Shown here in pieces: positions 1-11,276 of a stretch of DNA of 11,292 bases (position 1 is its first letter; each line of letters begins with the position of its first letter). The notes beneath the pieces are model-generated. The model searched no databases. It worked only from the letters and a program-made list of their open reading frames with translations, and had not been told where the DNA came from. The position numbers were made by a program, and so were the translations under genes. The stretch lies in NCBI GenBank assembly GCA_964586355.1, contig CAZPGO010000054.1, positions 1-11,292 of the forward strand. The letters are read 5' to 3'. Source of the DNA: an uncultured archaeon. GTDB taxonomy: Archaea; Iainarchaeota; Iainarchaeia; Iainarchaeales; CSSED10-239.

Positions 1-157
1 ACAGATTTTGATCTAAAATTAATAAATTTCATAAGAATCAATTCCAATATAAATTAAAGAAGTAATAAGATAAAAAGATTTAAATAGTTAACTAAAAAAA
101 AATTTATTAATAAAAAAATAGTTTCTTTTTCTAAGCTTTCTTTGTAAAAAAAGGTTA

Positions 158-969: not shown

Positions 970-1761
970 CTATAAAAACAAAGAAAATAAGAAAAACAAC
1001 AACAAAGACAAAGGAAGCAAAATAATAACATAAAGAGCAGATTTTCTTGAACTGTTTTCTATTAATCCTAAATATATTCCTGATATTATGGAATATTCTA
1101 TTATGTAGATAATAGTACAAACATAAGAAATAACAAAAACATCACTAGCAATGGTAGTTAGAGAAACATTAGATCTAAGATTATTAATTAAAGAAATAAC
1201 AACACCTAAGATACCAGGAACAATTAATCCACCAGCAAAAAGAACAGTGTATTTTTGCATTAGTAACATTGATTCTCTTTCAGAGAGCAATTCCTTTGAC
1301 TCTATAAACTGTGTTGCTAGTTTTTTATAATCCTTATTACTTACAACACCAGTAGTAATAGATAACAACAAAAGATCCAAAAATCTTGTAAGTATTATAG
1401 ACTCATACTTTTTTTTTAGAATTTCAAAAACAGATCTAGGGTTATGACCGTTATTTATTTTATCATAAACAAAACTAAATTCCTCAGAAATTATATTATT
1501 TTTAGAAAACTTTAATTTTTTTAAAATGTTTTTTAGATCATTACTTTTTGGATAAGAAGAGATTATCATTAACTCATCTATTATTGCTATTTCTAGTTTT
1601 TGTTTCTTAATTAAGAATTTATATCTTTTAAAAATACCATTAAACAAAAAACCAAACACCAAAATACCAACAAATATTCCTAGAAACAAATAAATATTTA
1701 GATCTAGAATAAATAAAAATAATAACAAAGGCAATAACAAAAATAATCTTTTAGATTTCAT
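970..1761 (-). CDS. Type II secretion system F-domain-like membrane protein (TadC/FlaJ-like platform subunit, second of two)
   Basis: 263-aa ORF with N-terminal TM helices, a helical cytoplasmic segment of about 120 aa, then 3-4 C-terminal TM helices. This is the topology of a single T2SSF repeat. It starts 13 nt downstream of the preceding platform-like gene on the same strand. Sequence similarity is weak, so the call rests on topology and context. Confidence 0.55.
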   Translation of the reverse strand: MKSKRLFLLLPLLLFLFILDLNIYLFLGIFVGILVFGFLFNGIFKRYKFLIKKQKLEIAIIDELMIISSYPKSNDLKNILKKLKFSKNNIISEEFSFVYDKINNGHNPRSVFEILKKKYESIILTRFLDLLLLSITTGVVSNKDYKKLATQFIESKELLSERESMLLMQKYTVLFAGGLIVPGILGVVISLINNLRSNVSLTTIASDVFVISYVCTIIYIIEYSIISGIYLGLIENSSRKSALYVIILLPLSLLLFFLFSLFL

Positions 1762-1774
1762 ATTTTCTCAAATT

Positions 1775-2506
1775 TTACATATTTGCCCTCATAAACAAAA
1801 GCAAAAATAAATCAATTACTGGAAACAAAACAACAGTTACAAAAATAATAGTGGTTTTTGAGAGGGAGAACTCCAAAAAAGAAGCACCAATTAAAAAAAA
1901 CATTAAAAATATTGCAGGAACTACTGCTGAAATTACTATAAATATCAAACTAATAAAGTTTAACTTGGTAGAATATCTTTTAGAATCTGATTTTTGTTTC
2001 TCTATTATGGTTTTAGATAAGGTTCTTAGGTTATCTGATTTATTTGTACCACCACTAGTAACAGTATCTGTTATTTGATAAAGAGATCTACTTAGGTTTT
2101 CTGTCTTAATTGATAAAGAACTAAAAGCCTTTTCTAAAGAGTATCCTTTTTTATTAATCTTATCTAGTCCTTGCTTAAGTAACACCCCTAAATCTTTATT
2201 TTCAAAGATCTTAGACTCAATTTCTAAAGCAGACTTTAAAGAGATCCCTTTCTCTAAATTATTTGCAAGATTATTTAGAAAATATGGAAGGTCTTGATCT
2301 ATTCTTTTTACAAGATCTCTTTGTTTTATTATTTCTAAAAAATATATTATAAGAAAATAACTAATAGCAACAGAGAATAATAAAAAAAACAGTTGAAAAA
2401 AAGTAATCTCTAAAAATATGTTATTTAATAAAAAATATAATAACAAAAAAGAAAACTCAATAATTAAAAATAAAAAAAACTGTTTTTTAGTAAAGATCTG
2501 TTTCAT
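1775..2506 (-). CDS. Type II secretion system F-domain-like membrane protein (TadB/FlaJ-like platform subunit, first of two)
   Basis: 243-aa ORF with two N-terminal TM helices and a cytoplasmic helical domain (DLPYFLNNLANNLEKGISLKSALE...GYSLEKAF...LYQITDTVTSGG) resembling the T2SSF pattern, followed by C-terminal TM helices. Its ATG overlaps the ATPase stop codon (ATGA at 2503-2506), which implies translational coupling. Confidence 0.62.
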   Translation of the reverse strand: MKQIFTKKQFFLFLIIEFSFLLLYFLLNNIFLEITFFQLFFLLFSVAISYFLIIYFLEIIKQRDLVKRIDQDLPYFLNNLANNLEKGISLKSALEIESKIFENKDLGVLLKQGLDKINKKGYSLEKAFSSLSIKTENLSRSLYQITDTVTSGGTNKSDNLRTLSKTIIEKQKSDSKRYSTKLNFISLIFIVISAVVPAIFLMFFLIGASFLEFSLSKTTIIFVTVVLFPVIDLFLLLFMRANM

Positions 2507-4203
2507 ATTTTATTTCCTAGTTTAGAGATTTTAAATTTATTAATAAGTTTTAAGGAGTTATTTTTTTTAATTAAAATGTTTTTCTTAGAATCGTATTCAA
2601 ACAACTTATTTAGAAATATCTTTTGTTTAGTATTATCAAAAACAACTTCAGAGATCTCCATAATCTTTCTTCTTTCAATTATTTGATCTTTGTTATATTC
2701 ATTATATCTTCTTTGATTAATAATTAGATCAATGGAGCCAATATCTTGCTCCAAAACCCCATAAGATCTTAATCTTAAAATAGCATCATTAGAGGACTGT
2801 GCATGAATGGTGGTATATGTGCCTTTTGCTTGCCCACAAAGAATTGAGTCAATCAAAGACAATATCTCTTCTTTTGATCTAACTTCTCCAATAATCACTC
2901 GGTCTGGTCTCATTCTTAAAGTGTTTATTACTAAAGAATCAAGTAATATATTTTGATCCTTATTTACAATTAATGAAACCTTATGAGGATGAGAAATATT
3001 AATCTCCCTTACCTCCTCAACTAAAACCATTCTCTCCGACTTAGGAATAAATTCTAAAAGAGCATTTAGGGTTGTTGTTTTTCCTGAACCTGTGTTACCA
3101 CAAACAAATATATTTGAATCTGTTAAAAAAGCTTTTTTTAAAAAATTAAAAACTTCTTTAGTAATTATCTTTTGGGATAATAGATCAGTAACAGTAAACG
3201 GGACAACAGGAAATTTTCTAATAGTAATGGATATAGAATCAGTTATGGGATTTATAACAGCATTAAGTCTAGTGTGGTTTTTTAGAGTTATGTCTAACAA
3301 AGGATTTTTTAAAGTTATATATTTACTAGACTCCCAGCTCATTTTGTTAATTAGATCCTTTAAACAGTCTAAGGATTTATAGACAATATTTGTTTTTAAC
3401 CAGCCAAAGTTTTTATGATAAACAAAAGCGGATTCATCTATATCAAAGATTACAATCTCCTCTAGATCATTATCCTTTAGCATTAAAGACAAAGGACCAA
3501 GATCAGATAAAATATTTACAGCACACTCTAAAATATACTTAAACTGATCATCATCAAGCTCAATAGAATTATTAAAACAATAATTTACAAGTATTTCATC
3601 AAGATCTTTTTTTATACTTTCAGTTATTTCCATATTATCTATTTCTTTGTTTGTGTGATCTGTTTTATAATTATCTAAAATGTCGTTTATTAGTTCTATT
3701 TCTGATAAAGAAAGCTTTTGATAATTAACAATATATCTCTTTTCATTATTTTTGTCAATTATAACAGAAGAATCTAGAGAGAGAGTTTTTTCTGTTTTTA
3801 TATCTTCTACTATAAAACCAAAATACTTAGACAAAATCTCTTTTTCTTTTATTTCATTTTCATCAACAAGTTCAAGCATTTCTTTATTATTATAAAAACA
3901 AGGCATCAGAAAGGAATTATTGAAACAGAGATCACATTTTTTTGCTTTATTTTTAATTAAAACAATAGCATTGTTCTTACAAGCTTTTACACAAGCCCCA
4001 CAACCAACACATTTTTTTGAATCTATGGTAACTATTCCTGTTTTTGAATCTTTTTTTATAGCTCCATATTTACAAGCCTTAAGACAAAGAGGGTCTTGAC
4101 AATTAACACAGTTAAAGACATTAATATGCTTCTCTTTAAAATTATAGGGACAATTTAGGAAAAGATCTTTCTCTGGTTTTTCTGATTTTAGTTTAAGATA
4201 CAT
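2503..4203 (-). CDS. Type II/IV secretion-system ATPase (FlaI/PilB/TadA-VirB11 superfamily) with an N-terminal 4Fe-4S ferredoxin-type domain
   Basis: 566-aa ORF. Walker A is GNTGSGKTTT (nt 3070-3099). The Asp/Walker B box is RMRPDRVIIGEVRSKE. The His box is GTYTTIHAQS. The N-terminal ~105 aa contain 12 Cys arranged as ferredoxin-type cluster motifs. Confidence 0.9.
   Translation of the reverse strand: MYLKLKSEKPEKDLFLNCPYNFKEKHINVFNCVNCQDPLCLKACKYGAIKKDSKTGIVTIDSKKCVGCGACVKACKNNAIVLIKNKAKKCDLCFNNSFLMPCFYNNKEMLELVDENEIKEKEILSKYFGFIVEDIKTEKTLSLDSSVIIDKNNEKRYIVNYQKLSLSEIELINDILDNYKTDHTNKEIDNMEITESIKKDLDEILVNYCFNNSIELDDDQFKYILECAVNILSDLGPLSLMLKDNDLEEIVIFDIDESAFVYHKNFGWLKTNIVYKSLDCLKDLINKMSWESSKYITLKNPLLDITLKNHTRLNAVINPITDSISITIRKFPVVPFTVTDLLSQKIITKEVFNFLKKAFLTDSNIFVCGNTGSGKTTTLNALLEFIPKSERMVLVEEVREINISHPHKVSLIVNKDQNILLDSLVINTLRMRPDRVIIGEVRSKEEILSLIDSILCGQAKGTYTTIHAQSSNDAILRLRSYGVLEQDIGSIDLIINQRRYNEYNKDQIIERRKIMEISEVVFDNTKQKIFLNKLFEYDSKKNILIKKNNSLKLINKFKISKLGNKI
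3898..4152 (-). other. Fe-S cluster-binding (4Fe-4S dicluster, CooF/DmsB-like) domain within the ATPase ORF
   Basis: Cys residues fall at aa 18, 32, 35, 40, 44, 65, 68, 71, 75, 90, 93 and 102. The motifs are CvnCqdplClkaC (C-x2-C-x4-C-x3-C), CvgCgaCvkaC (C-x2-C-x2-C-x3-C) and KCDLC-x8-C, the last resembling the KCDLC motif of CooF/DmsB/HybA-type subunits. Confidence 0.7.
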
Positions 4204-4335: not shown

Positions 4336-5259
4336 ATGGAAAAAGAATATATAATAATGGCACCACAAAAAGATCTGCCACTAGCAACAGCGATTGCTGA
4401 TAAATTGGATTTACCTATTGCTGGTATAGATCTTAAAAAAATAAATGAGTCTGAAACTGTTGTGGATATTAAAAGTTATGTAAACCATAAAACTGTGTTT
4501 TTAATATTTAATCTAAACACTCCAATAAACGATTCATTAATGAATCTTTTTTTCACATCTGATCTTTTAAAGAAACAAGGAGCTCAAAAAATTCATCTTT
4601 TTTTACCATATTTTCCATATACAAAAATACCTGATGATCTAATAACCTCTATAGATCTAAACCTTATTATTAGATTTATTGAGGTCTCTGGAATAGACTC
4701 TATCTATACCTTTGATATGTTTAATCCACAGATAACTAGTGCAATAAATATTCCTATATATAATATTTCTATGAAAAGAGTATTTAGTAAAACATTAGAA
4801 GAAAAATATAGATCTAATAAGGATCTGGTAGCTACAACAATTGATTTTGAATTTCAATATAGGGCAAGAGATATAGCTAAAGAAATTAAAAGTAAATTTG
4901 TAACTGTTAACAAATATTTTAAAGACTTTGAAGAAACCTATGAAATTGAAAGCAACATAAATAACAAAGATGTGTTAGTTATTGGAAACCTAATAGTCTC
5001 AGCACAAATACTTACCAACTTTGCAAATTATCTTACAACAAAAGGAGCAAGAACAGTATCTATTCTTGCAACTCATGGAGTGTTTAGTGAAGGTGCTGTA
5101 AATAGATTAGAAAAGAGTGTGATTAAAGATATTTATGTGTGTACTGCAGCAAAACAAAAATATTCAAAAAAAATAAAAGTGATTTCATATATTAATATTA
5201 TTAAAGAAATAATAGAAAGAATAATTGATCAAAAAAGCATAAAAAGCTATACCAACTAA
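4336..5259 (+). CDS. Ribose-phosphate pyrophosphokinase (Prs)-like protein, PRTase fold, with degenerate catalytic motifs
   Basis: 307-aa ORF whose overall layout matches class I Prs. It has an N-terminal 'IIMAPQKDLPLATAIADKLDLPIAGIDLKKINESETVVDI..V..K.VFLI' segment, LPYFPY, and a strong C-terminal match ILATHGVFSEGAVNRL. The YARQDR, DLH, SPDxGG and DDxIDTGGT motifs are all replaced (see findings). Confidence 0.75.
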   Translation: MEKEYIIMAPQKDLPLATAIADKLDLPIAGIDLKKINESETVVDIKSYVNHKTVFLIFNLNTPINDSLMNLFFTSDLLKKQGAQKIHLFLPYFPYTKIPDDLITSIDLNLIIRFIEVSGIDSIYTFDMFNPQITSAINIPIYNISMKRVFSKTLEEKYRSNKDLVATTIDFEFQYRARDIAKEIKSKFVTVNKYFKDFEETYEIESNINNKDVLVIGNLIVSAQILTNFANYLTTKGARTVSILATHGVFSEGAVNRLEKSVIKDIYVCTAAKQKYSKKIKVISYINIIKEIIERIIDQKSIKSYTN

Positions 5260-5274
5260 ATAAAGGACAAAAAT

Positions 5275-6327
5275 ATGATAACAGATAAAAAAATGCAAAA
5301 AGTTATTGGAGAGTTAATTACTCTTGCTAATAATGAGATAAAACTCTCAAGAGATCAACAACTAAATGTTATAGATCTAATTATAGAAAGAAGAGCACAA
5401 GATCAACCACAACTCTCTATTGAAAAAATACTTAGAGATCTAACAGCAAATATTCAAAGATCAGAATCACCAATGGCATATATTAGTCTTTTAAATAAAT
5501 ATGATCTGATTGAACAAAAGGAGCAAAAAATATTTGCACAAAAAATAAAATTAATAGCAGATATTGAACTTAAACTTTCTGAACAAAAACACATTAATCC
5601 AGCAGAATATGAAAGATATATAGAACCTTTGTTTAAATTACCTTTAAATCAAAAACTAAAACTATTTAATCAATCAGAAATTAAGAAAAAACTAAATAAA
5701 GCAACTACGATTTTAAGTAGATATAGAACATTAGTAAACATGTATTTAAAAAGCTCAGGAGAAAAAAAAGAAAAAATAAATTATTTATTAGAAAAAACAA
5801 GGCACAAAATAAAAACAGAAGTGCATCAAATATACTCTGAAATTAGTACAGATATAAAAAATCAGCAAATAAGAAACTCTAGAAAAGAAAGATCTGGGTT
5901 TAGAATGCTAGCAAAAAATGCAGAAACTAAAAAAGAGATAGATTATATTATGCTTCTTGGAGGTAATAAAGAAAATGCAAGATCATGGGAAAATGGATGT
6001 ATAGATTTTTCTAAAATACCTAGCACAAGAGAACTTTACATAGATCTATTAATAAAAAGAATAAAAGATAAAAAAACATTAACAGAAAGTGAATTTTATA
6101 GTTTTATAAACATCTTAACCAACACCATAGTAGAAAAAAGCCCAAACAAAAATAAGAATGCTATTAGAGAGAAACTTATAAAAGATCTATCCCATAATAG
6201 ATGCCTAGATCATATACTATTAAAATTAAAAAATCTAGGAGTCCTAAAAAAAGAAACACATAAAAAATTCTTTGAGGAACAAAAAGAAAGAATAGCAAAA
6301 AACATCAAATCTAAAAGAAGAAAATGA
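5275..6327 (+). CDS. Hypothetical lysine-rich, predicted all-helical protein (ORFan)
   Basis: 350-aa uninterrupted ORF starting 15 nt after the Prs-like stop. An AAGGA Shine-Dalgarno-like element lies about 8 nt upstream of the ATG. It has a very basic C-terminal tail (KNIKSKRRK) and no motif I recognise. Confidence 0.6.
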   Translation: MITDKKMQKVIGELITLANNEIKLSRDQQLNVIDLIIERRAQDQPQLSIEKILRDLTANIQRSESPMAYISLLNKYDLIEQKEQKIFAQKIKLIADIELKLSEQKHINPAEYERYIEPLFKLPLNQKLKLFNQSEIKKKLNKATTILSRYRTLVNMYLKSSGEKKEKINYLLEKTRHKIKTEVHQIYSEISTDIKNQQIRNSRKERSGFRMLAKNAETKKEIDYIMLLGGNKENARSWENGCIDFSKIPSTRELYIDLLIKRIKDKKTLTESEFYSFINILTNTIVEKSPNKNKNAIREKLIKDLSHNRCLDHILLKLKNLGVLKKETHKKFFEEQKERIAKNIKSKRRK

Positions 6328-6360
6328 TTTAAAAATCTTTTGGTGTTTTGACTTTATTTC

Positions 6361-6411
6361 CTATATATATGGCTTTCTATCTATAATATATATATTAAAT
6401 AATTAAAAAAA
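6361..6411 (+). promoter_or_regulatory. Candidate TATA-box region, preceded by oligo-T tracts that could terminate the upstream operon
   Basis: CTATATATATGG and TATAATATATATATT lie 20-35 nt upstream of the PPC-domain ORF start. T-runs (CTTTT, GTGTTTT, CTTTATTT) at 6337-6360 follow the ORFan stop. The context is weak and AT-rich. Confidence 0.25.
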
Positions 6412-6921
6412 GTGGTAAAAATGATAAAAAGTAGATATAATGATGTACAAGAATCAAAAGACACCATTCTAGAAGTAGTTTTAGATGATGGAGACGAGTT
6501 TCTTGAATGTATTGAAAGATCTTTTGAACAAAATGATATAAAGAAAGCATCATTATTAAGTGCTATTGGCACCTTAAGGGATCTAAAGATAGCAACCACA
6601 AAGATAGGGTCAATTAGACAAAAAGTATATGAACAACCATGCCTTATAACAAATGTTTCAGGAGACTTTACAAAGACAAAAAACGGAGAATATATGGGTG
6701 ATGTTCATATATCTCTTGCAAGAGATGCAATACATAAAGTAAATGGGGTATTACTTAAAGGTCTTTCTCATGGAGAAGTGAAATTAAAGTTTAAGGTTAT
6801 AACAGATCTTTCTATTGGAGTTATAAAAATGCCAGAAGAAAAAAGGAATATTACTTTAGTAAAAGAAAAAATATTAGAAGAAACTTATTCTAAACCAAAA
6901 AAGCCCTTTATTGTTTCATAA
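6412..6921 (+). CDS. PPC (DUF296, 'plants and prokaryotes conserved') domain protein
   Basis: 169-aa ORF with the DUF296 pattern: EVVLDDGDEFLECIERSFEQNDIKKASLLSAIGTLRDLKIA ... SGDF ... GDVHISLA ... V.G.LLKG ... EVKL. The track start is GTG at 6412. The ATG at 6421, preceded by GTGGT, is an equally plausible true start. Confidence 0.7.
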   Translation: MVKMIKSRYNDVQESKDTILEVVLDDGDEFLECIERSFEQNDIKKASLLSAIGTLRDLKIATTKIGSIRQKVYEQPCLITNVSGDFTKTKNGEYMGDVHISLARDAIHKVNGVLLKGLSHGEVKLKFKVITDLSIGVIKMPEEKRNITLVKEKILEETYSKPKKPFIVS

Positions 6922-6926
6922 ATACT

Positions 6927-7481
6927 TTATTCTTCAACACTAAAAATCTCTTTTTTAGTGTATCCTAGTTTTTTTGCAAGTTCTTTGTGTTTTTCATTAT
7001 CTATAATATTATTATACTGAACAACTATATTATTATACTTAGCAATAGCTTCTCTTACCAAAACATCTGCTTGGTTGATCTCTTCAGTTGCTTTTTGATA
7101 TTTTTGATTATCTTTTAGGACATCTTGATATTTTTCTAAAATTAAGAAGGACTTTTGTAAAGTGTCATTAACTTTATCATTAACCATCATAAAACTAGTA
7201 AAATTATCAGCATATTTAAACTCTGATCTCATTCTTAAAAGATCAGCTAGTACATTTTTTTCTTTTAAATCTACATTTTCTAAAGAGTCTACTAAAGTAG
7301 CTATTGTTTCATCTCTTTTTTTTAACGAATTTAATAAATTTTTCCAAGACTTAACAATTTCAGATCTTTTTTCCAAAAGCTCGTTTTTTGGAGTTTTTTT
7401 TCTTTTTTTTAATATTAGAAAATAAACTAATAAAAAAGAAATTAGAACAGCCAGAAAAATAAAAATTATTAATAAACTCAT
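6927..7481 (-). CDS. lemA: LemA-family membrane-anchored protein
   Basis: 184-aa ORF with a single N-terminal TM helix followed by a KKRKK stop-transfer. LemA-like motifs are present: SW.NL...LKKRDE.I..LV, then YQ..L....Y......I......V..A...YNN.V..YNN.I......LAKKLGY..KE.F. Confidence 0.8.
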   Translation of the reverse strand: MSLLIIFIFLAVLISFLLVYFLILKKRKKTPKNELLEKRSEIVKSWKNLLNSLKKRDETIATLVDSLENVDLKEKNVLADLLRMRSEFKYADNFTSFMMVNDKVNDTLQKSFLILEKYQDVLKDNQKYQKATEEINQADVLVREAIAKYNNIVVQYNNIIDNEKHKELAKKLGYTKKEIFSVEE

Positions 7482-7568
7482 ATTTAATCACATTTTTTTA
7501 TGTTTTATAATATATAGTAGTTAGAATAATATATAAAATCTTCTTTTTTTACAAAAACACAGTAAAAT

Positions 7569-8645
7569 TTAATTATATTTTCCAAACATAAGATCATTAT
7601 AATCCAAAATTTCTTGTTCTGATAAAAGATCAGCAAACAACTTAATATCATAAATCACTCCATTAAAAAAATAAGGAGAACTATAATCTCTTTGACCGAT
7701 TGTAAAAGAACTAGATACATAAATATATGGATTACGTGACAAATAACTTTTTTCTTCTCCATTTACAAACATTCTAATTTCTGGTATAGATCTATCAAAT
7801 AACACAGCAACAGTATAAAATTCATTATTATTTAATGATTCTGAAATATAATATTCATTACTTGAACTATAAGATGTTGATAACCTACCAGAAGCATCTA
7901 ATTTAATGGATGATTGTGACTGAAAAGAGGAAAATCCAAAACCATATATTATTGTTTGTAAAGAACTATAATCAGTTTTAAAAGAAATTAAAACACTAGA
8001 TACAGAATTAGCAGGAAGATGATTTCTTGAAAAACCACCATCAGAAAAAAAGATTCCTTTTTCTTGGGTTTCTGGATTTCCTGTTAATAAAGAAAGATTG
8101 TAATTATTTTTACTTTTATCAACTAAAACATTATCTACAACCGTCATATCATAATCTGCAACCAGACCGTTTTTTCCAAAACAATAATTATCAGACCTAT
8201 AATTATTTGTTTTTATTAAAATTGAAAAATAGGTTTTTTCTTCATTAAATAATTGTAAATAAAAATTACTTTCTGGTAAACAAATTAAATTAAAAGAAAC
8301 AAAAGCACCTGGATCTAAAATTATTTCGTTCTTAAAATATAATGGTTGATTTCCAAAAATATAGTTACTATCAGTAACAAGATTATAACCAATAAACTTA
8401 ATTGATTCTGTACTATGTATATTTCTAATAATTACTAAATTACTTTCAGATAATTGCTTAATATCAGTTAAAACTAAAAAAGAAGAAAGATCACTTTCCG
8501 TAAAAGTAGATGTAAGATCTATTTGGTTTAAGTTCTCTTTTGCAAAGCTTGAGCTCCAAGTTAAGACAACGGTGATCAATATAACACTTACAACTATTAG
8601 TAAGATTGTGGCGATCAATAGAGAAACAGATCTTCTAATAAACAT
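7569..8645 (-). CDS. Archaeal type IV pilin-like protein (class III signal peptide, Pilin_N/DUF1628-type N-terminus) with a C-terminal LamG/ConA-like lectin domain
   Basis: 358 aa. The N-terminus is MFIRRSV-SLLIATILLIVVSVILITVVLTW. The C-terminal ~190 aa match the Laminin_G_3 pattern, ending FTIGQRDYSSPYFFNGVIYDIKLFADLLSEQEILDY. Its start lies 2 nt after the stop of the upstream paralog, indicating an operon. Confidence 0.8.
   Translation of the reverse strand: MFIRRSVSLLIATILLIVVSVILITVVLTWSSSFAKENLNQIDLTSTFTESDLSSFLVLTDIKQLSESNLVIIRNIHSTESIKFIGYNLVTDSNYIFGNQPLYFKNEIILDPGAFVSFNLICLPESNFYLQLFNEEKTYFSILIKTNNYRSDNYCFGKNGLVADYDMTVVDNVLVDKSKNNYNLSLLTGNPETQEKGIFFSDGGFSRNHLPANSVSSVLISFKTDYSSLQTIIYGFGFSSFQSQSSIKLDASGRLSTSYSSSNEYYISESLNNNEFYTVAVLFDRSIPEIRMFVNGEEKSYLSRNPYIYVSSSFTIGQRDYSSPYFFNGVIYDIKLFADLLSEQEILDYNDLMFGKYN
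8537..8627. repeat. Pilin 5' cassette, copy A (nucleotide-level repeat)
   Basis: CTTTTGCAAAGCTTGAGCTCCAAGTTAAGACAACGGTGATCAATATAACA... aligns to copy C with 1 mismatch over the first ~50 nt and about 85% identity over ~90 nt. It encodes the signal-peptide/TM helix. Confidence 0.85.
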
Positions 8646-8647
8646 TA

Positions 8648-10102
8648 TTAAACAATCTCCGGAGTCAGTTTAATATTTGCAATTCTATCACCAGGATCTA
8701 AATCAATAACAAAATAATTACTATTAATATAACTACTATTTGTCACAGGATTAGAACCAGAAGCTAAAGAAACAAGAGTCCAATCATTATATCCAGGAGT
8801 TGATATAAAAAAAGGCCCTTTTATAAAAAAAGTAAACTTATTTGATTTATCTCTTGTAATTTTAATATTATACCAAAATTTATCTTTAATAAAATTGCTA
8901 TTAGTAACCATTAAAGCATTACCACCTGGATCATTTGACATTGTAAAATGTGTCACTTTCGTGTCTCTATAAATAAATAACATATACCCTTGAAAAGAAC
9001 TATATGCACTAGTTTTGTTAGAAATAATATGAATACGAGGATTTTGATCAGCACCCTTATACAGATCAAATTCCCAAGTACCATATGCTTGAGGACTTAT
9101 TAATGCTTTTCTTCCGTTAGTAAGATTTTCAAAATATTTAGTACCATCAGTAATTGTTTCTAATGGATCTATCTCTTTAATAGAATCAATTCTAACAACA
9201 ACATTAGCTGTTGTTGACTGACGTAACTGAAGTTGAAAATAAGATGATGATTCTCTATCACACCAAATGGTTAAAGTGTGTTTACCTATTTCTTTTATTG
9301 GTACTCCACTATCATCTAAATAATCAAAACTTAAACTAAATCTTTGAAAATATAAATCATCATTAGCAAGAATTCCAGTTGTGCTTAACGTCTCCAGCTC
9401 TATTTTATAAAGTCTACCAAAAGTATAAGGAATTAAACCTGAAGACATCATAGTTAATGTACCGCCATCTGATGTTAATGACCATGTTTTTTCTGAAATT
9501 TTAACTATATTACCAGTAGTATTTATTACTGAATCTAAATAAATATTTTCTTTTGTTTCTTTATTAAATTCATCTATTTTATAACTACCATTTATGGTTT
9601 CAAACTCCCATAAAGGAACATGAAAACTATTACATTTTGTAAACAATCTGTTTCCTTGTGGATTGATCTCTAAAGTATATGGCTGATCATTAATATCTAT
9701 TAACTCTAAAAAAAATTTATTCTCTGGAACACAGACTAAAGAAATTGGATTTATGGAAGATCTGTTAAATAAAATATTGTTTTCTAGGGTTCTATAACTA
9801 TTTAGCCAAAAATAGTCTGAGTTATAATCATTTGTTAAGATCTTGTAACCTTTAATTTCTAGATCACTATCAGAAATATTTCTTAGAACAAGTTGATTAC
9901 CAACTAAAGAAATTTGCCAAAAGAAATCTCTCTTTGAAATGTTTTTTGAAGACTCTAGAAGATCTGTGGCTTGGTTGGTTGTGTTTTCGGTAAAGCCTTT
10001 GCCCCAAGTTAAAACTACAGTGATCAATATAATACTTACAACTATTATTAAGATTGTGGCGATCAATGGGGAGAGAGATCTTTTATAATTTATTTTAACC
10101 AT
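8648..10102 (-). CDS. Archaeal type IV pilin-like protein with two predicted jelly-roll (CBM-like and LamG/ConA-like) C-terminal domains
   Basis: 484 aa. The N-terminus is MVKINYKRSL-SPLIATILIIVVSIILITVVLTW. It shares the pilin-proximal module with its neighbours. The C-terminal ~320 aa are beta-rich, with lectin/CBM-like endings (ANVVVRIDSIKEI; GTWEFDLYKG...WYNIKITRD...FTFFIKG...). The C-terminal domain assignment is tentative. Confidence 0.72.
   Translation of the reverse strand: MVKINYKRSLSPLIATILIIVVSIILITVVLTWGKGFTENTTNQATDLLESSKNISKRDFFWQISLVGNQLVLRNISDSDLEIKGYKILTNDYNSDYFWLNSYRTLENNILFNRSSINPISLVCVPENKFFLELIDINDQPYTLEINPQGNRLFTKCNSFHVPLWEFETINGSYKIDEFNKETKENIYLDSVINTTGNIVKISEKTWSLTSDGGTLTMMSSGLIPYTFGRLYKIELETLSTTGILANDDLYFQRFSLSFDYLDDSGVPIKEIGKHTLTIWCDRESSSYFQLQLRQSTTANVVVRIDSIKEIDPLETITDGTKYFENLTNGRKALISPQAYGTWEFDLYKGADQNPRIHIISNKTSAYSSFQGYMLFIYRDTKVTHFTMSNDPGGNALMVTNSNFIKDKFWYNIKITRDKSNKFTFFIKGPFFISTPGYNDWTLVSLASGSNPVTNSSYINSNYFVIDLDPGDRIANIKLTPEIV
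10004..10080. repeat. Pilin 5' cassette, copy B
   Basis: CCAAGTTAAAACTACAGTGATCAATATAATACTTACAACTATTATTAAGATTGTGGCGATCAATGGGGAGAGAGATC is about 85-90% identical to copy A by hand alignment. Confidence 0.8.
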
Positions 10103-10154
10103 AATAATAAATATAGAAGAAATAAATGTTTATAATATTATTTAAATAAAAAAT

Positions 10155-11276
10155 TTACTCAATTAAACTTTTTGTATTATTCCAAAGTGTTGTTATTTCA
10201 TCTATTGTTAATTTATTATCATAAACTTTTAACATCATCATTTTTCCTCTAAATCCACTGGTGTTACTAGAACTAAGTCCAAAAATAGTTGTCTCTGTTT
10301 CTGTATCTATAGGAATTCCACTTGATTGATCTGTGTGAGTACATGTCGGTGTATTTGTGCTATCTCCAGAATAAAAATTAACATATCCATCAACATCTCT
10401 TGTAATTGCAAAAAACTGTGTTGTTGTTGGATTTACATAATTTGAATTACTTAAAGCCGTTGTTAAACCATCCGATCTTATTCTCATTCTATTTGTTGTG
10501 CTGCCATCTATAAAAAAAGCACCATTATCTAAAAGATAAGTGCCAAGAGAAATATCATTATAATTAGCCCAAAAAACAATCGTTATTGAGCCTGTTCCAA
10601 TAAAATTAGAACTTGCTTTTAATTTATAACCACCATTCGTTACTTGTGCATAATTTTTTCTATTTTCAACAATGTTTGTTGATTCTACTCCTAGCAGTGT
10701 TAATATCTTTCCAGTTCTTTCTATTTGTGTTCCAGAGGTTACATCGTAATCAAAAAGCAATCTACATCTCAAAGGGTCTACATCATTTATAGATCTTGCA
10801 AGAACTTGTGTTCTTACATATGTGTTTTGATCTGTTAACAAATCTATGAAAAAAGATTCTTCTGGGTAACAATCTATTTGTAAGACTTCTGCTTGCTTAG
10901 ATCCTATTATTAATGGTTCTTCTAAATAATAGAGCTTATTTTCAAAATAATCATAAAGATAATGATCAAGAGAAGAAATTATTTTATAACCAACAACATT
11001 TAGATCTTTTGAAGAATGGTTATTGGAAATTAAAATGTTTTGTGCTGATAAAGAGCTGTTAGTGATTAAACCGATGAAATCTTTATTGTTAATTTTTGAT
11101 GTTTGGGCAGTTGATAAATTATCTTTTGCAAAGTTTGAGCTCCAAGTTAAGACAACGGTGATCAATATAACAGAAACAACTATTAGTAAAATGGTCGCTA
11201 TTAAAGGAGAGACATATTTATATTTTTTAAACAAAAATTTTTTTCTTAATTTAGATCTGTTTTTTTTGGATAACAT
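10155..11276 (-). CDS. Archaeal type IV pilin-like protein with a C-terminal LamG/ConA-like lectin domain and an unusually long basic leader
   Basis: 373 aa. The leader MLSKKNRSKLRKKFLFKKYKYV precedes SPLIATILLIVVSVILITVVLTW. The C-terminal domain follows the Laminin_G_3 pattern, ending TTIFGLSSSNTSGFRGKMMMLKVYDNKLTIDEITTLW. A TTG at 11234 is a possible alternative start. Confidence 0.8.
   Translation of the reverse strand: MLSKKNRSKLRKKFLFKKYKYVSPLIATILLIVVSVILITVVLTWSSNFAKDNLSTAQTSKINNKDFIGLITNSSLSAQNILISNNHSSKDLNVVGYKIISSLDHYLYDYFENKLYYLEEPLIIGSKQAEVLQIDCYPEESFFIDLLTDQNTYVRTQVLARSINDVDPLRCRLLFDYDVTSGTQIERTGKILTLLGVESTNIVENRKNYAQVTNGGYKLKASSNFIGTGSITIVFWANYNDISLGTYLLDNGAFFIDGSTTNRMRIRSDGLTTALSNSNYVNPTTTQFFAITRDVDGYVNFYSGDSTNTPTCTHTDQSSGIPIDTETETTIFGLSSSNTSGFRGKMMMLKVYDNKLTIDEITTLWNNTKSLIE
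11123..11213. repeat. Pilin 5' cassette, copy C
   Basis: CTTTTGCAAAGTTTGAGCTCCAAGTTAAGACAACGGTGATCAATATAACA... is near-identical to copy A. Confidence 0.85.

Follow-up and report, generated by a model that had tools for sequence, protein, structure and literature searches.

Modular pilins in bacteria and type IV pilins in archaea

The closest described counterparts of the proteins reported here are the modular pilins of bacteria, which combine a pilin with many families of head domain (Raynaud 2021; Shahin 2023). In PilC and PilB of Streptococcus sanguinis (7oa8 and 7oa7; PMC8179133, PMC9934059), a class III signal and a small pilin module are joined through a short linker to a ConA-like/LamG lectin module, and the same order of parts is found in the archaeal locus described below. 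PilC binds glycans within a minor-pilin complex, and the place of this complex at the pilus tip comes from modelling (PMC9934059).

The archaeal pilins with which the locus can be compared, both known from solved filaments, are those of P. calidifontis (flagellar-like AT4P, 8fk7; PMC10334743) and C. divulgatum (CdiPB, 8rey; PMC12448462), which have 135-144 aa and end after an Ig-like domain. The C-terminal domains of all known archaeal pilins appear to be Ig-like, and the P. calidifontis pilin contains an intramolecular disulfide (PMC10334743). [quoted passage not shown]

Lectin-like proteins have been connected with pili in DPANN archaea before. According to the passages of Golyshina et al. 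(2017, PMC5498576) on these proteins, Mia14 has an expanded set of jelly-roll LamG-like proteins, which are plentiful in DPANN generally. Its authors describe 'some of them linked to type IV pili loci' and propose that they take part in interaction with hosts. The same passages speak of linkage, not of fusion to a pilin module, and bring in neither a shared carrier nor a cleavage motif or head swapping (PMC5498576). Mia14 belongs to Micrarchaeota, while the genome described here belongs to Iainarchaeota.

A further system of similar design is the bindosome of Sulfolobus/Saccharolobus, in which a large binding protein comes after a class III signal and requires a FlaI-like ATPase as well as a platform protein. 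Its substrates are solute-binding proteins that feed ABC transporters and, to our knowledge, have no pilin globular module. The archaeal proteins reported here likewise place a large predicted binding protein behind an archaeal class III signal. Unlike the bindosome, their locus contains no solute-binding-protein fold and no ABC transporter.

Three tandem genes in an Iainarchaeota genome

The window, by which we mean the whole stretch of 11,292 nucleotides analysed, comes from a tiny DPANN archaeon of the phylum Iainarchaeota/Diapherotrites, the type of organism that the preliminary description had guessed. It contains three tandem open reading frames exactly where that description had placed them, all on the minus strand: g3 (10155..11276, 373 aa; supported by Laminin_G_3, AF2 and Foldseek), g2 (8648..10102, 484 aa; AF2 and Foldseek) and g1 (7569..8645, 358 aa; Laminin_G_3 and alignment). 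The gaps between them are 52 nt (g3/g2) and 2 nt (g2/g1).

The three proteins begin alike. Their alignment contains the invariant stretch L-I-A-T-I-L-x-I-V-V-S-x-I-L-I-T-V-V-L-T-W, and the segments of leader and helix are 64-81% identical. The 115 nt that encode the helix are present three times in the DNA at 77-79% identity, a similarity far beyond chance. The beta module that follows (about 100-120 aa) is 25-30% identical (pairwise BLAST E about 2e-8). All three proteins have two conserved Cys in it, together with the motif C.PE..F[FY][LI].L; a second motif that had been proposed, [IV][KV]GY[KN][IL], is slightly too strict, since g1 reads FIGYNL. The heads (203, 327 and 203 aa) show no pairwise BLAST similarity (E>1), in line with the divergence that had been described.

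We consider g1-g3 to be archaeal modular type IV pilins with lectin-like heads, most likely accessory subunits of a filament, and place the probability of this reading as a whole at about 0.62. The architecture of class III signal, common pilin module and variable lectin-like head, which had been proposed from the letters, is borne out by profile, Foldseek and cleavage-motif evidence.

A complete archaeal pilin at the N-terminus

The N-terminal ~150 aa of g1-g3 are a whole archaeal type IV pilin. A profile of this module (A4) matches 8fk7_A, the P. calidifontis type IV pilin, with E=1.4e-7 over profile positions 2-119, and 8rey_M with E=7e-5. In AF2 models of g2 and g3, a long N-terminal helix is followed by an Ig-like beta-sandwich, with pLDDT of 80-89 in the pilin modules. 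Foldseek aligns these models to 8fk7_A with E=1.4e-5 and 2.7e-5 (probability 1.0) in 144-146 columns, the full length of the 136-residue target. The helix comprises aa 12-53 in g2 and about aa 22-58 in g3 (aa 24-58 in the AF2 model), and the pilin module aa 57-146 and about aa 71-159, respectively; in g1, the module runs up to Cys155, and a LamG head follows. The conserved Cys pair (Cys122-Cys155 in g1, Cys124 and Cys157 in g2, Cys136 and Cys171 in g3) can be set beside the disulfide of the P. calidifontis pilin.

The module of g1-g3 is homologous to the P. calidifontis and C. divulgatum pilins, with which it shares the cleavage register, the alpha1 helix and the Ig-like domain, and not to bacterial pilins. 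Unlike 8fk7 and 8rey, g1-g3 have a further 200-330 aa past this point, made up of unrelated, predicted jelly-roll domains; the heads are an addition to the Ig-like domain and not a variant of it.

How secure is the pilin assignment? The Pfam family Pilin_N (PF07790), whose use as a check had been proposed, stays below its gathering score of 25.2 bits in g1 (14.7), g2 (16.7) and g3 (18.6), with E-values of 0.06 to 0.003, a result that goes partly against the preliminary description. Of 92 relatives, only 4 have a match at E<=1e-4. The assignment is therefore based on other evidence, and g1-g3 are not filed under PF07790, though related. Together with the database names ('hypothetical' or 'LamG domain-containing protein') and a Tyr at position -1 of g3, the low scores would fit common surface proteins, of the S-layer type or otherwise, that keep an N-terminal signal anchor uncleaved and resemble pilins only superficially. 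We regard this as very improbable: the profile matches solved pilins well past the helix, the fold match spans the whole 8fk7 chain, and type IV machinery genes lie nearby. The profile and fold evidence outweighs the sub-threshold Pilin_N score, and the pilin call stands as supported.

Signal peptide and processing

The leaders of g1 (MFIRRS) and g2 (MVKINYKRS) precede predicted cleavage sites before VSLLIATIL and LSPLIATIL, respectively. The leader of g3 (aa 1-21) is unusually long and has Tyr at -1. In all three proteins, an uncharged stretch of 25-29 aa lies past the predicted site. Among 148 relatives, the median leader length is 8 aa; position -1 is Ser in 101, Ala in 37, Gly in 6 and Phe or Tyr in 4 (S/A/G in 97%), and position -2 is Lys or Arg in 140 (95%). 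FlaFind-type rules demand Gly or Ala at -1; contrary to such a rule, it is Ser that prevails in the relatives of g1-g3. The parts of a class III signal (basic leader, small residue at -1, K/R at -2, hydrophobic stretch) are all present in g1 and g2 and only partly in g3, where the 21-aa leader and the Tyr are atypical. The proposed class III signal holds for g1, g2 and most of the 148 relatives; the g3 prepilin, judged by its -1 residue, may be uncleavable.

The mature N-terminus of CdiPB seen by cryo-EM is in register with the V/L-SPLIATILL predicted for g1-g3, and the most conserved residues of the relatives begin exactly at this experimentally observed position. Peak conservation at that point, together with the conserved [KR][KR][SAG] junction, again argues against an uncleaved anchor. 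A prepilin peptidase gene was not found in the window or in 19 kb of the same contig. In Ca. Forterrea, a Peptidase_A24 gene is located ~10 kb from a homologous array.

Lectin-like heads

Laminin_G_3 (PF13385) exceeds its gathering score of 27.6 bits in g1 (43.6 bits, aa 244-346) and g3 (29.3 bits, aa 217-361), in agreement with the LamG endings proposed for the two outer genes; the Pfam search gave no Laminin_G_3 match in g2. In g3, the LamG/ConA-like head (aa 173-352) is followed by a C-terminal helix (aa 358-372); the g2 head consists of two beta-rich domains (about aa 217-311 and 323-481) without a Pfam match. The best PDB match of the g3 model in Foldseek is 7oa8, PilC of S. sanguinis (E=1.2e-6). 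At a probability of 1.0, and with head models of mixed confidence (pLDDT 33-89), g3 also matches BoNT Hc-N, trans-sialidase lectin domains and PTX3, and g2 matches CBM66 (TMt 0.65), tandem galectins and ERGIC-53. Head confidence is moderate, with pLDDT of 41-54 over about half of the g3 head and 33-68 in the proximal g2 head. Structure prediction, suggested earlier as a check, returned jelly-roll matches for the heads and the full 8fk7 pilin fold in both models; in its model, the g2 head too appears as ConA-like jelly-rolls, apparently no different in kind from the other heads.

The distal region of g2 (aa 303-481) resembles the C-terminal domain of a non-pilin protein, P0017, at 47% identity. 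Domains of this type are unassigned in Pfam and accompany LamG in non-pilin proteins.

What might the heads bind? LamG folds can also be protein-binding or purely structural, and carbohydrate binding by the heads is something that we infer from family precedent only. No enrichment of N-glycosylation sequons was found.

Decoupling of carrier and head

Relatives of the carrier module, collected at E<=1e-10, form 241 representative clusters of proteins of 102-1271 aa, in which the carrier is always N-terminal. Among 92 representatives, at least 39 Pfam families occur attached to it, so that one carrier bears many head families, as in the bacterial modular pilins. In these proteins, a short linker connects the N-terminal pilin with a module of a kind not confined to type IV filament biology, the arrangement that defines modular pilins in the sense of Raynaud and Pelicic. 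The bacterial IPR012902 motif (G before the cleavage site, F/M...E5 after it) is absent: g1-g3 lack Gly at -1 and Phe/Met at +1, and +5 is Ile. Because the bacterial survey took IPR012902 as its definition, proteins of the g1-g3 type were undetectable in it. Unlike the bacterial module, the one found here is archaeal and Ig-like, with [KR][KR]S before and xSP after the predicted cut. By their sequences, g1-g3 are best described as an archaeal analogue outside the published bacterial set.

Module and head identities are decoupled. For example, relative P0005 is 95% identical to g2 in its module but 35% in its head; the modules of P0058 and P0065 are 86-89% identical to that of g3 and the module of P0067 is 81% identical, while none of their heads matches. 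The same can be seen between strains. Strain L006 is 98.9-100% identical to the window over 4481-10167, which covers g1 and g2. Within g3, DNA similarity to L006 is confined to the carrier module, made up of the mature helix and the beta module (10764..11213, minus strand; 83%), and it stops just past the codon of the second conserved Cys, at the module/head junction. The head cassette of g3 (10158..10757, minus strand) shows no similarity in its DNA to what L006 carries in this slot, and the 3' boundary of the unrelated stretch is the g3 stop codon. Compared with bacterial modular pilins, several genes here stand in tandem arrays and the heads are swapped between strains; one MAG has at least ten modular pilins. 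The fusion of one carrier to at least 39 Pfam families, the decoupling of module and head, and the head swap between strains are new.

Assembly machinery and place in the filament

Which machinery might assemble these pilins? At 3.3 kb from the array, separated from it by four unrelated genes, lie a T2SSE ATPase gene and two T2SSF genes. The FlaI/PilB-type ATPase (2503..4203, minus strand; T2SSE 113 bits) has an N-terminal 2x[4Fe-4S] ferredoxin domain (Fer4_11 and Fer4_7) and is a candidate motor for g1-g3. The Fer4-ATPase fusion is conserved in the lineage, where Fer4-fused and plain ATPase paralogs are both present. The platform protein is split, as in C. divulgatum, into halves with one T2SSF domain each (1775..2506, minus strand, 37.9 bits; 970..1761, minus strand, a marginal 24.6 bits against a gathering score of 25.2). 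At the edge of the window, another modular pilin gene (1..32, minus strand) is present with its first 10 codons (MKFINFRSKS) and runs off the window; its version in L005 has 376 aa and a DUF5018 head. Modular pilins therefore stand on both sides of the machinery genes, two of them on the far side from the array. Directly downstream of the array is a gene for a LemA-family membrane protein (6927..7481, minus strand), and the order of array and LemA is kept in the distant relative L001.

Archaeal class III signals also occur on non-pilin substrates (Szabo et al. 2007, as cited in PMC9934059), and g1-g3 might use theirs for membrane insertion and surface tethering only, possibly in a short pseudopilus or a bindosome-like assembly comparable to the Sulfolobus class III-signal sugar-binding proteins. 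A weak match of the ATPase to the bindosome BasE model (E=1.3e-22) points the same way, but the ATPase is far closer to FlaI (E=7e-45), and the locus has no solute-binding-protein fold or transporter. The helix alone would suffice for anchoring, yet the full Ig-like pilin domain and the Cys pair are kept in 241 clusters whose heads are unrelated. That g1-g3 are not filament subunits is therefore unlikely.

If g1-g3 are pilins of a filament, do they form its bulk? Same-lineage MAGs contain arrays of 147-180-aa short pilins that adjoin a second T2SSF pair, and one short pilin has 21-24 of its first 30 mature residues in common with g1-g3. A head-decorated filament may thus mean a few accessory subunits on a short-pilin filament. 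Because of this very similar alpha1-N helix and the analogy with S. sanguinis PilB/PilC, g1-g3 are most likely accessory subunits, at the tip or sparsely placed. No short pilin was found in the roughly 30-kb region around g1-g3, so this reading draws on other genomes.

The alternative, that g1-g3 are major subunits, alone or mixed, of a thick filament coated with lectin heads, is possible though considerably less probable. The adjacent Fer4-ATPase and split platform would then be a second pilus system, apart from the one for short pilins. The at least six modular pilins within about 30 kb, flanking the machinery, would fit this, as would the different T2SSF pair beside the short-pilin arrays and the two kinds of ATPase paralog; large filament-forming archaeal pilins are known, for example Iho670 (303-aa chain in 5kyh). 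However, a head of 200-330 aa would need room at every subunit position, completely different paralog heads would be unusual in a structural major subunit, and in L001 and L002 the genes for ATPase and platform lie away from the homologous arrays, a point that also weighs against the accessory-pilin reading. Modelling of bacterial modular pilins likewise favours a tip location (PMC8179133).

A proposed route to a variable attachment apparatus

For accessory modular pilins, we propose the following route. An archaeal prepilin peptidase (PibD/FlaK/EppA type, Peptidase_A24) would cut the preprotein, with its short basic leader, after [KR][KR]-S. At the N-terminus so created, V/L-S-P-L-I-A-T-I-L-L, an uncharged, hydrophobic alpha1 helix of about 25-29 residues would start, which with the following Ig-like beta module of about 100 aa would make up the complete pilin. 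In a type IV filament, extruded by the FlaI-like ATPase and the split platform protein encoded nearby, this part would take its place in core and shell. Beyond a short linker past the second conserved Cys, the jelly-roll head of ConA/LamG type, which has two beta domains in g2, would project from the filament and bind a ligand, in all likelihood a glycan of some other cell or surface. In this way the heads might serve in attachment to a host, as the preliminary description suggested.

With its three genes, the array would present one carrier with three distinct binding heads. Recombination at the module/head boundary would replace heads and could give rise to strain-level variation in binding specificity; the strain-specific head in the g3 slot is as expected of an attachment apparatus.

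A tandem array with a common N-terminus and variable heads

The window (11,292 bp, about 25% G+C) carries three adjacent genes on the minus strand: g3 (10155-11276, an ORF of 373 aa), g2 (8648-10102, 484 aa), and g1 (7569-8645, 358 aa), with gaps of 52 nt between g3 and g2 and 2 nt between g2 and g1. The preliminary description of these genes as tandem paralogs, each made up of a signal, a shared module, and a variable head, agrees with the identities of the separate segments. The leader plus helix is 64-81% identical among g1-g3 and contains the invariant motif LIATIL.IVVS.ILITVVLTW; at the DNA level, the 115 nt encoding the helix form a three-copy repeat of 77-79% identity. The beta module that follows is 25-30% identical (pairwise BLAST E about 2e-8) and aligns with two conserved Cys and the motif C.PE..F[FY][LI].L in common, while pairwise similarity is undetectable among the heads of 203, 327, and 203 aa. 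The shared architecture is real and goes beyond chance.

Immediately downstream of the array lies a LemA-family gene (6927-7481, minus strand). The same order of array and then LemA recurs in L001, a locus where a distant relative encodes six modular pilins in a 10-kb stretch (LemA at 15638-16192), and in L004-L006; two of these, L004 and L005, are JGI contigs with parts 100% identical to the window. Elsewhere in the window, a 350-aa Lys/Glu-rich ORF (5275-6327, plus strand) is located between the PRPP synthase and PCC-domain genes. This ORF is kept in L004-L006 and a Pfam search of it gave no match.

Pilin identity of the N-terminal region

Are the N-terminal 150 residues of these proteins those of a pilin? 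The Pilin_N test that had been proposed formally fails, because g1-g3 score 14.7-18.6 bits and are thus all under the Pfam gathering score of 25.2. NCBIfam provides no useful family and only a weak N-terminal UpsA match, for g2 alone (E=9e-4). Pilin identity is nevertheless supported by comparison with solved structures. An alignment of 20 N-modules from diverse relatives (A4), when searched by sequence against all PDB chains, matches 8fk7_A from Pyrobaculum calidifontis (E=1.4e-7) over profile positions 2-119, well past the helix, and 8rey_M (E=7e-5); both are filament-forming archaeal type IV pilins. The latter is CdiPB of Cuniculiplasma divulgatum, the mature form of which lacks the first 11 residues (PMC12448462). 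The deposited 8rey chain begins VSPIIATILL, in exact register with V/L-SPLIATILL of g1-g3. In AF2 models of g2 and g3 (mean pLDDT 66), a helix of 35-42 residues leads into a beta module at pLDDT 80-89, and in Foldseek both models align with 8fk7 over its entire chain (144-146 columns at probability 1.0).

The residues around the predicted cleavage site are conserved among 148 relatives: Ser is found at -1 in 101, Ala in 37, and Gly in 6; 140 have Lys or Arg at -2; and the leader has a median length of 8 aa. In g1-g3, the site is directly followed by 25-29 uncharged aa. The junction residues are those of a class III signal peptide, as had been predicted, and favour Ser at -1. The exception is g3, where the leader is 21 aa long and Tyr occupies -1. 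A reading as an archaellum or as FlaF/FlaG was rejected, the region having no archaellin, FlaH, or other archaellum genes. N-glycosylation sequons number 1, 9, and 5 in g1-g3, which is not above shuffled expectation, and sequon enrichment was dropped as support for surface filaments.

Lectin-like heads

The LamG/ConA-type endings first noticed in the two outer genes are borne out by Pfam, where Laminin_G_3 is above threshold in both g1 (43.6 bits) and g3 (29.3 bits). Among PDB structures, the g3 model is matched best by 7oa8 (Foldseek E=1.2e-6, 400 columns), the Streptococcus sanguinis protein PilC. This bimodular minor pilin includes a lectin module of the ConA-like type. The g3 model also matches the lectin domains of botulinum toxins and trans-sialidases. 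The head of g2 appears to be lectin-like too, although its Pfam search gave no match. It models as two beta domains and matches tandem galectins, CBM66 (TMt 0.65), and ERGIC-53. The distal domain (aa 303-481; window 8660-9196) shares 47% identity with the C-terminal domain of P0017, a non-pilin protein with a LamG domain elsewhere in its chain. Taken together, the LamG matches in g1 and g3 and the fold matches of the g2 model suggest that all three heads are ConA-like jelly-rolls at the fold level; some parts of the models are of moderate confidence.

Proteins related to the g2 distal domain (P0017-P0050) are 300-840 aa long, have no pilin N-terminus, and often bear LamG or CBM_4_9. One is encoded on a 90-kb contig, L033, among co-directional genes without Pfam or PHROG matches. 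This contig looked phage-like, yet the g2 head had no tblastn match in 50,697 phage records, and PHROGs gave no match for g1-g3, P0032, or five L033 neighbours; no viral origin of the heads is claimed.

One carrier, many cargoes

Relatives of g1-g3 come from MAGs named Candidatus Iainarchaeum ('ainarchaeum'), Diapherotrites, and Ca. Forterrea multitransposorum, which places the source among the DPANN archaea, in the phylum Iainarchaeota. An exhaustive profile search found 241 representative clusters at E<=1e-10, and the module is N-terminal in every case. The 123 newly retrieved representatives are 102-1271 aa long (median 464). Module-only members of 102-226 aa in the representative search may be complete genes or contig-end fragments, and bare-carrier pilins are not claimed. 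In a set of 92 representatives, the module is joined to 39 Pfam families. The combination with LamG was counted 8 times, alongside Glug (18), RCC1 propellers (9), Lcl_C (7), and further families including DUF5122, DUF285, CHB_HEX_C_1, Peptidase_M26_N, PKD, Kelch, NHL, and PT-HINT. Within the set P0095-P0200, two carrier-module proteins have PT-HINT pretoxin domains and four have Peptidase_M26_N; since these domains are found on carrier modules, the cargo may include toxins or enzymes besides adhesins.

Module and head identities are decoupled. Compared with g2, the related protein P0005 is 95% identical in the module but just 35% in the head, and P0058 and P0065 have modules 86-89% identical to that of g3 with unrelated heads. 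The same is found at much closer range in L006, a contig of a near-identical strain, which matches window positions 4481-10167 at 98.9-100% identity, a span that takes in g1, g2, LemA, and genes beyond. At g3, by contrast, the module has 83% DNA identity and the head no DNA similarity; similarity ends just past the second conserved Cys codon and resumes at the g3 stop codon. This pattern indicates replacement of a head cassette in the g3 slot between near-identical strains, and the module may have been replaced too. Because heads appear to be exchanged between strains that are 99% identical, binding specificity is suggested to be the fast-evolving trait.

The complete, conserved pilin domain is retained whatever the head. 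This makes it improbable that the proteins act as non-filament tethers in the manner of a bindosome, and very unlikely that they are uncleaved anchors.

In Ca. Forterrea, the array encodes proteins of 494, 445, and 617 aa and lies about 10 kb from a Peptidase_A24 gene, which starts at L002 position 21073 and is truncated by the end of the locus sequence. Five modular pilins in tandem are found in Ca. ainarchaeum STD2_171 (L008 1531-7962; 432, 467, 431, 467, and at least 341 aa). The products of the two 467-aa genes do not differ in the 60 N-terminal residues compared, so a unit of two genes appears to have been duplicated recently.

Assembly machinery and short pilins

Three machinery genes lie 3.3 kb from the array on the same strand. 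One encodes a FlaI/PilB-type ATPase (2503-4203, minus), the N-terminal part of which contains a 2x[4Fe-4S] ferredoxin domain at aa ~27-96. The other two (1775-2506 and 970-1761, both minus) each encode one T2SSF domain and together make up a split platform; the same split is known from C. divulgatum, as CdiPFa/CdiPFb (PMC12448462). Beyond the machinery genes are two more modular pilins, with DUF5018 and LamG heads. The first (376 aa, junction RSKS|VSPLIASILL) has its start in window 1-32 on the minus strand and continues in L005 (11760-12890), and the second (363 aa) is at L005 13038-14129; another modular pilin of 369 aa is found at L004 383-1492. Tight operonic linkage between array and ATPase is ruled out as a general rule by L001 and the Ca. 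Forterrea locus (L002), where no such ATPase gene lies within 10 kb of the arrays.

The Fer4-ATPase fusion is kept in >80 protein clusters from Iainarchaeota/Diapherotrites and related MAGs, down to ~32% identity; plain ATPase paralogs of 450-500 aa without the ferredoxin domain also occur in the lineage. The ferredoxin domain may couple pilus assembly to redox state. The archaeal type IV pilus survey of Makarova et al. 2016 does not mention LamG, DPANN, or ferredoxin fusions, and so offers no precedent either way.

The MAGs of the modular-pilin relatives also have arrays of three or four Cys-rich pilins of 147-180 aa with the same class III junction (L016 4857-6989; L025 5496-7014; L017 5494-7484; also L019, L022, L024, and L026-L028). 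These arrays are directly downstream of a second split T2SSF pair (L016 3011-4729). One short pilin has 21-24 of its first 30 mature residues in common with g1-g3, and the resemblance between short and modular pilins is limited to the helix. The short proteins are likely to be the conventional pilins of the lineage.

Probable archaeal modular pilins

The evidence best supports a reading of g1-g3 as archaeal modular pilins. Their leader would be cleaved from the preproteins, the helix and Ig-like module would be built into a type IV filament, and the jelly-roll head would be exposed for ligand binding; we infer cleavage, assembly, filament position, ligand, and any host for g1-g3. Do these proteins form the bulk of the filament? 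S. sanguinis PilB and PilC have been modelled at the pilus tip and bind host proteins and glycans, respectively (PMC8179133, PMC9934059). Given this precedent, and given short pilins with a similar alpha1-N helix, an accessory role is the most likely, with a probability of roughly 0.4. The main rival, which is rather unlikely, is a homopolymer or heteropolymer coated with lectins and assembled by a Fer4-ATPase machine of its own. Overall, the initial description of the genes is confirmed and its interpretation supported, refined by the sub-threshold Pilin_N scores, an apparently lectin-like head in g2, and a probable accessory role; host attachment is a possible function.

Modular pilins are established in bacteria, and the published survey was defined by the bacterial motif IPR012902 (PMC8179133), to which proteins of the g1-g3 type are therefore invisible. 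The design principle is the same in g1-g3. In contrast to the bacterial proteins, the scaffold is archaeal and non-homologous, with array expansion and strain-level cassette exchange. Golyshina et al. 2017 (PMC5498576) described LamG-like proteins as expanded in DPANN, some of them linked to type IV pilus loci, and Makarova et al. 2019 reported divergent pilins in DPANN pilus loci. Kreutzberger et al. 2023 (PMC10334743) noted that the C-terminal domains of all known archaeal pilins appear Ig-like. The literature searched describes neither the fusion of an archaeal pilin carrier with lectin or other cargo domains nor head swapping; earlier notes may exist. The modular principle seems to have arisen independently in archaea, on the Ig-like archaeal scaffold.

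A broader and more tentative proposal is that Iainarchaeota and neighbouring DPANN possess a dedicated 'pilin display' system. One conserved carrier, cut at [KR][KR]S|xSP, would present rapidly exchangeable cargo on a filament driven by the ferredoxin-fused, possibly redox-gated, FlaI-type ATPase. Cargo cassettes (lectins, beta-propellers, Glug/Peptidase_M26-type modules, and even PT-HINT pretoxin modules) would recombine exactly at the module/head junction, and would set partner or host range as phage receptor-binding proteins or polymorphic toxin loci do.

These observations extend the 'modular pilin' principle from bacteria to archaea, and provide an annotation rule for several hundred metagenomic proteins now named 'hypothetical' or 'LamG domain-containing'. 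Among DPANN archaea, in which the annotation 'hypothetical' is given to most surface proteins, the locus is a concrete candidate for the attachment to and choice of partners. Its carrier can be recognised with profile A4, its cleavage site is predicted, and its soluble heads are defined; apparent head replacement between 99% identical strains is the pattern expected of a host-range determinant.
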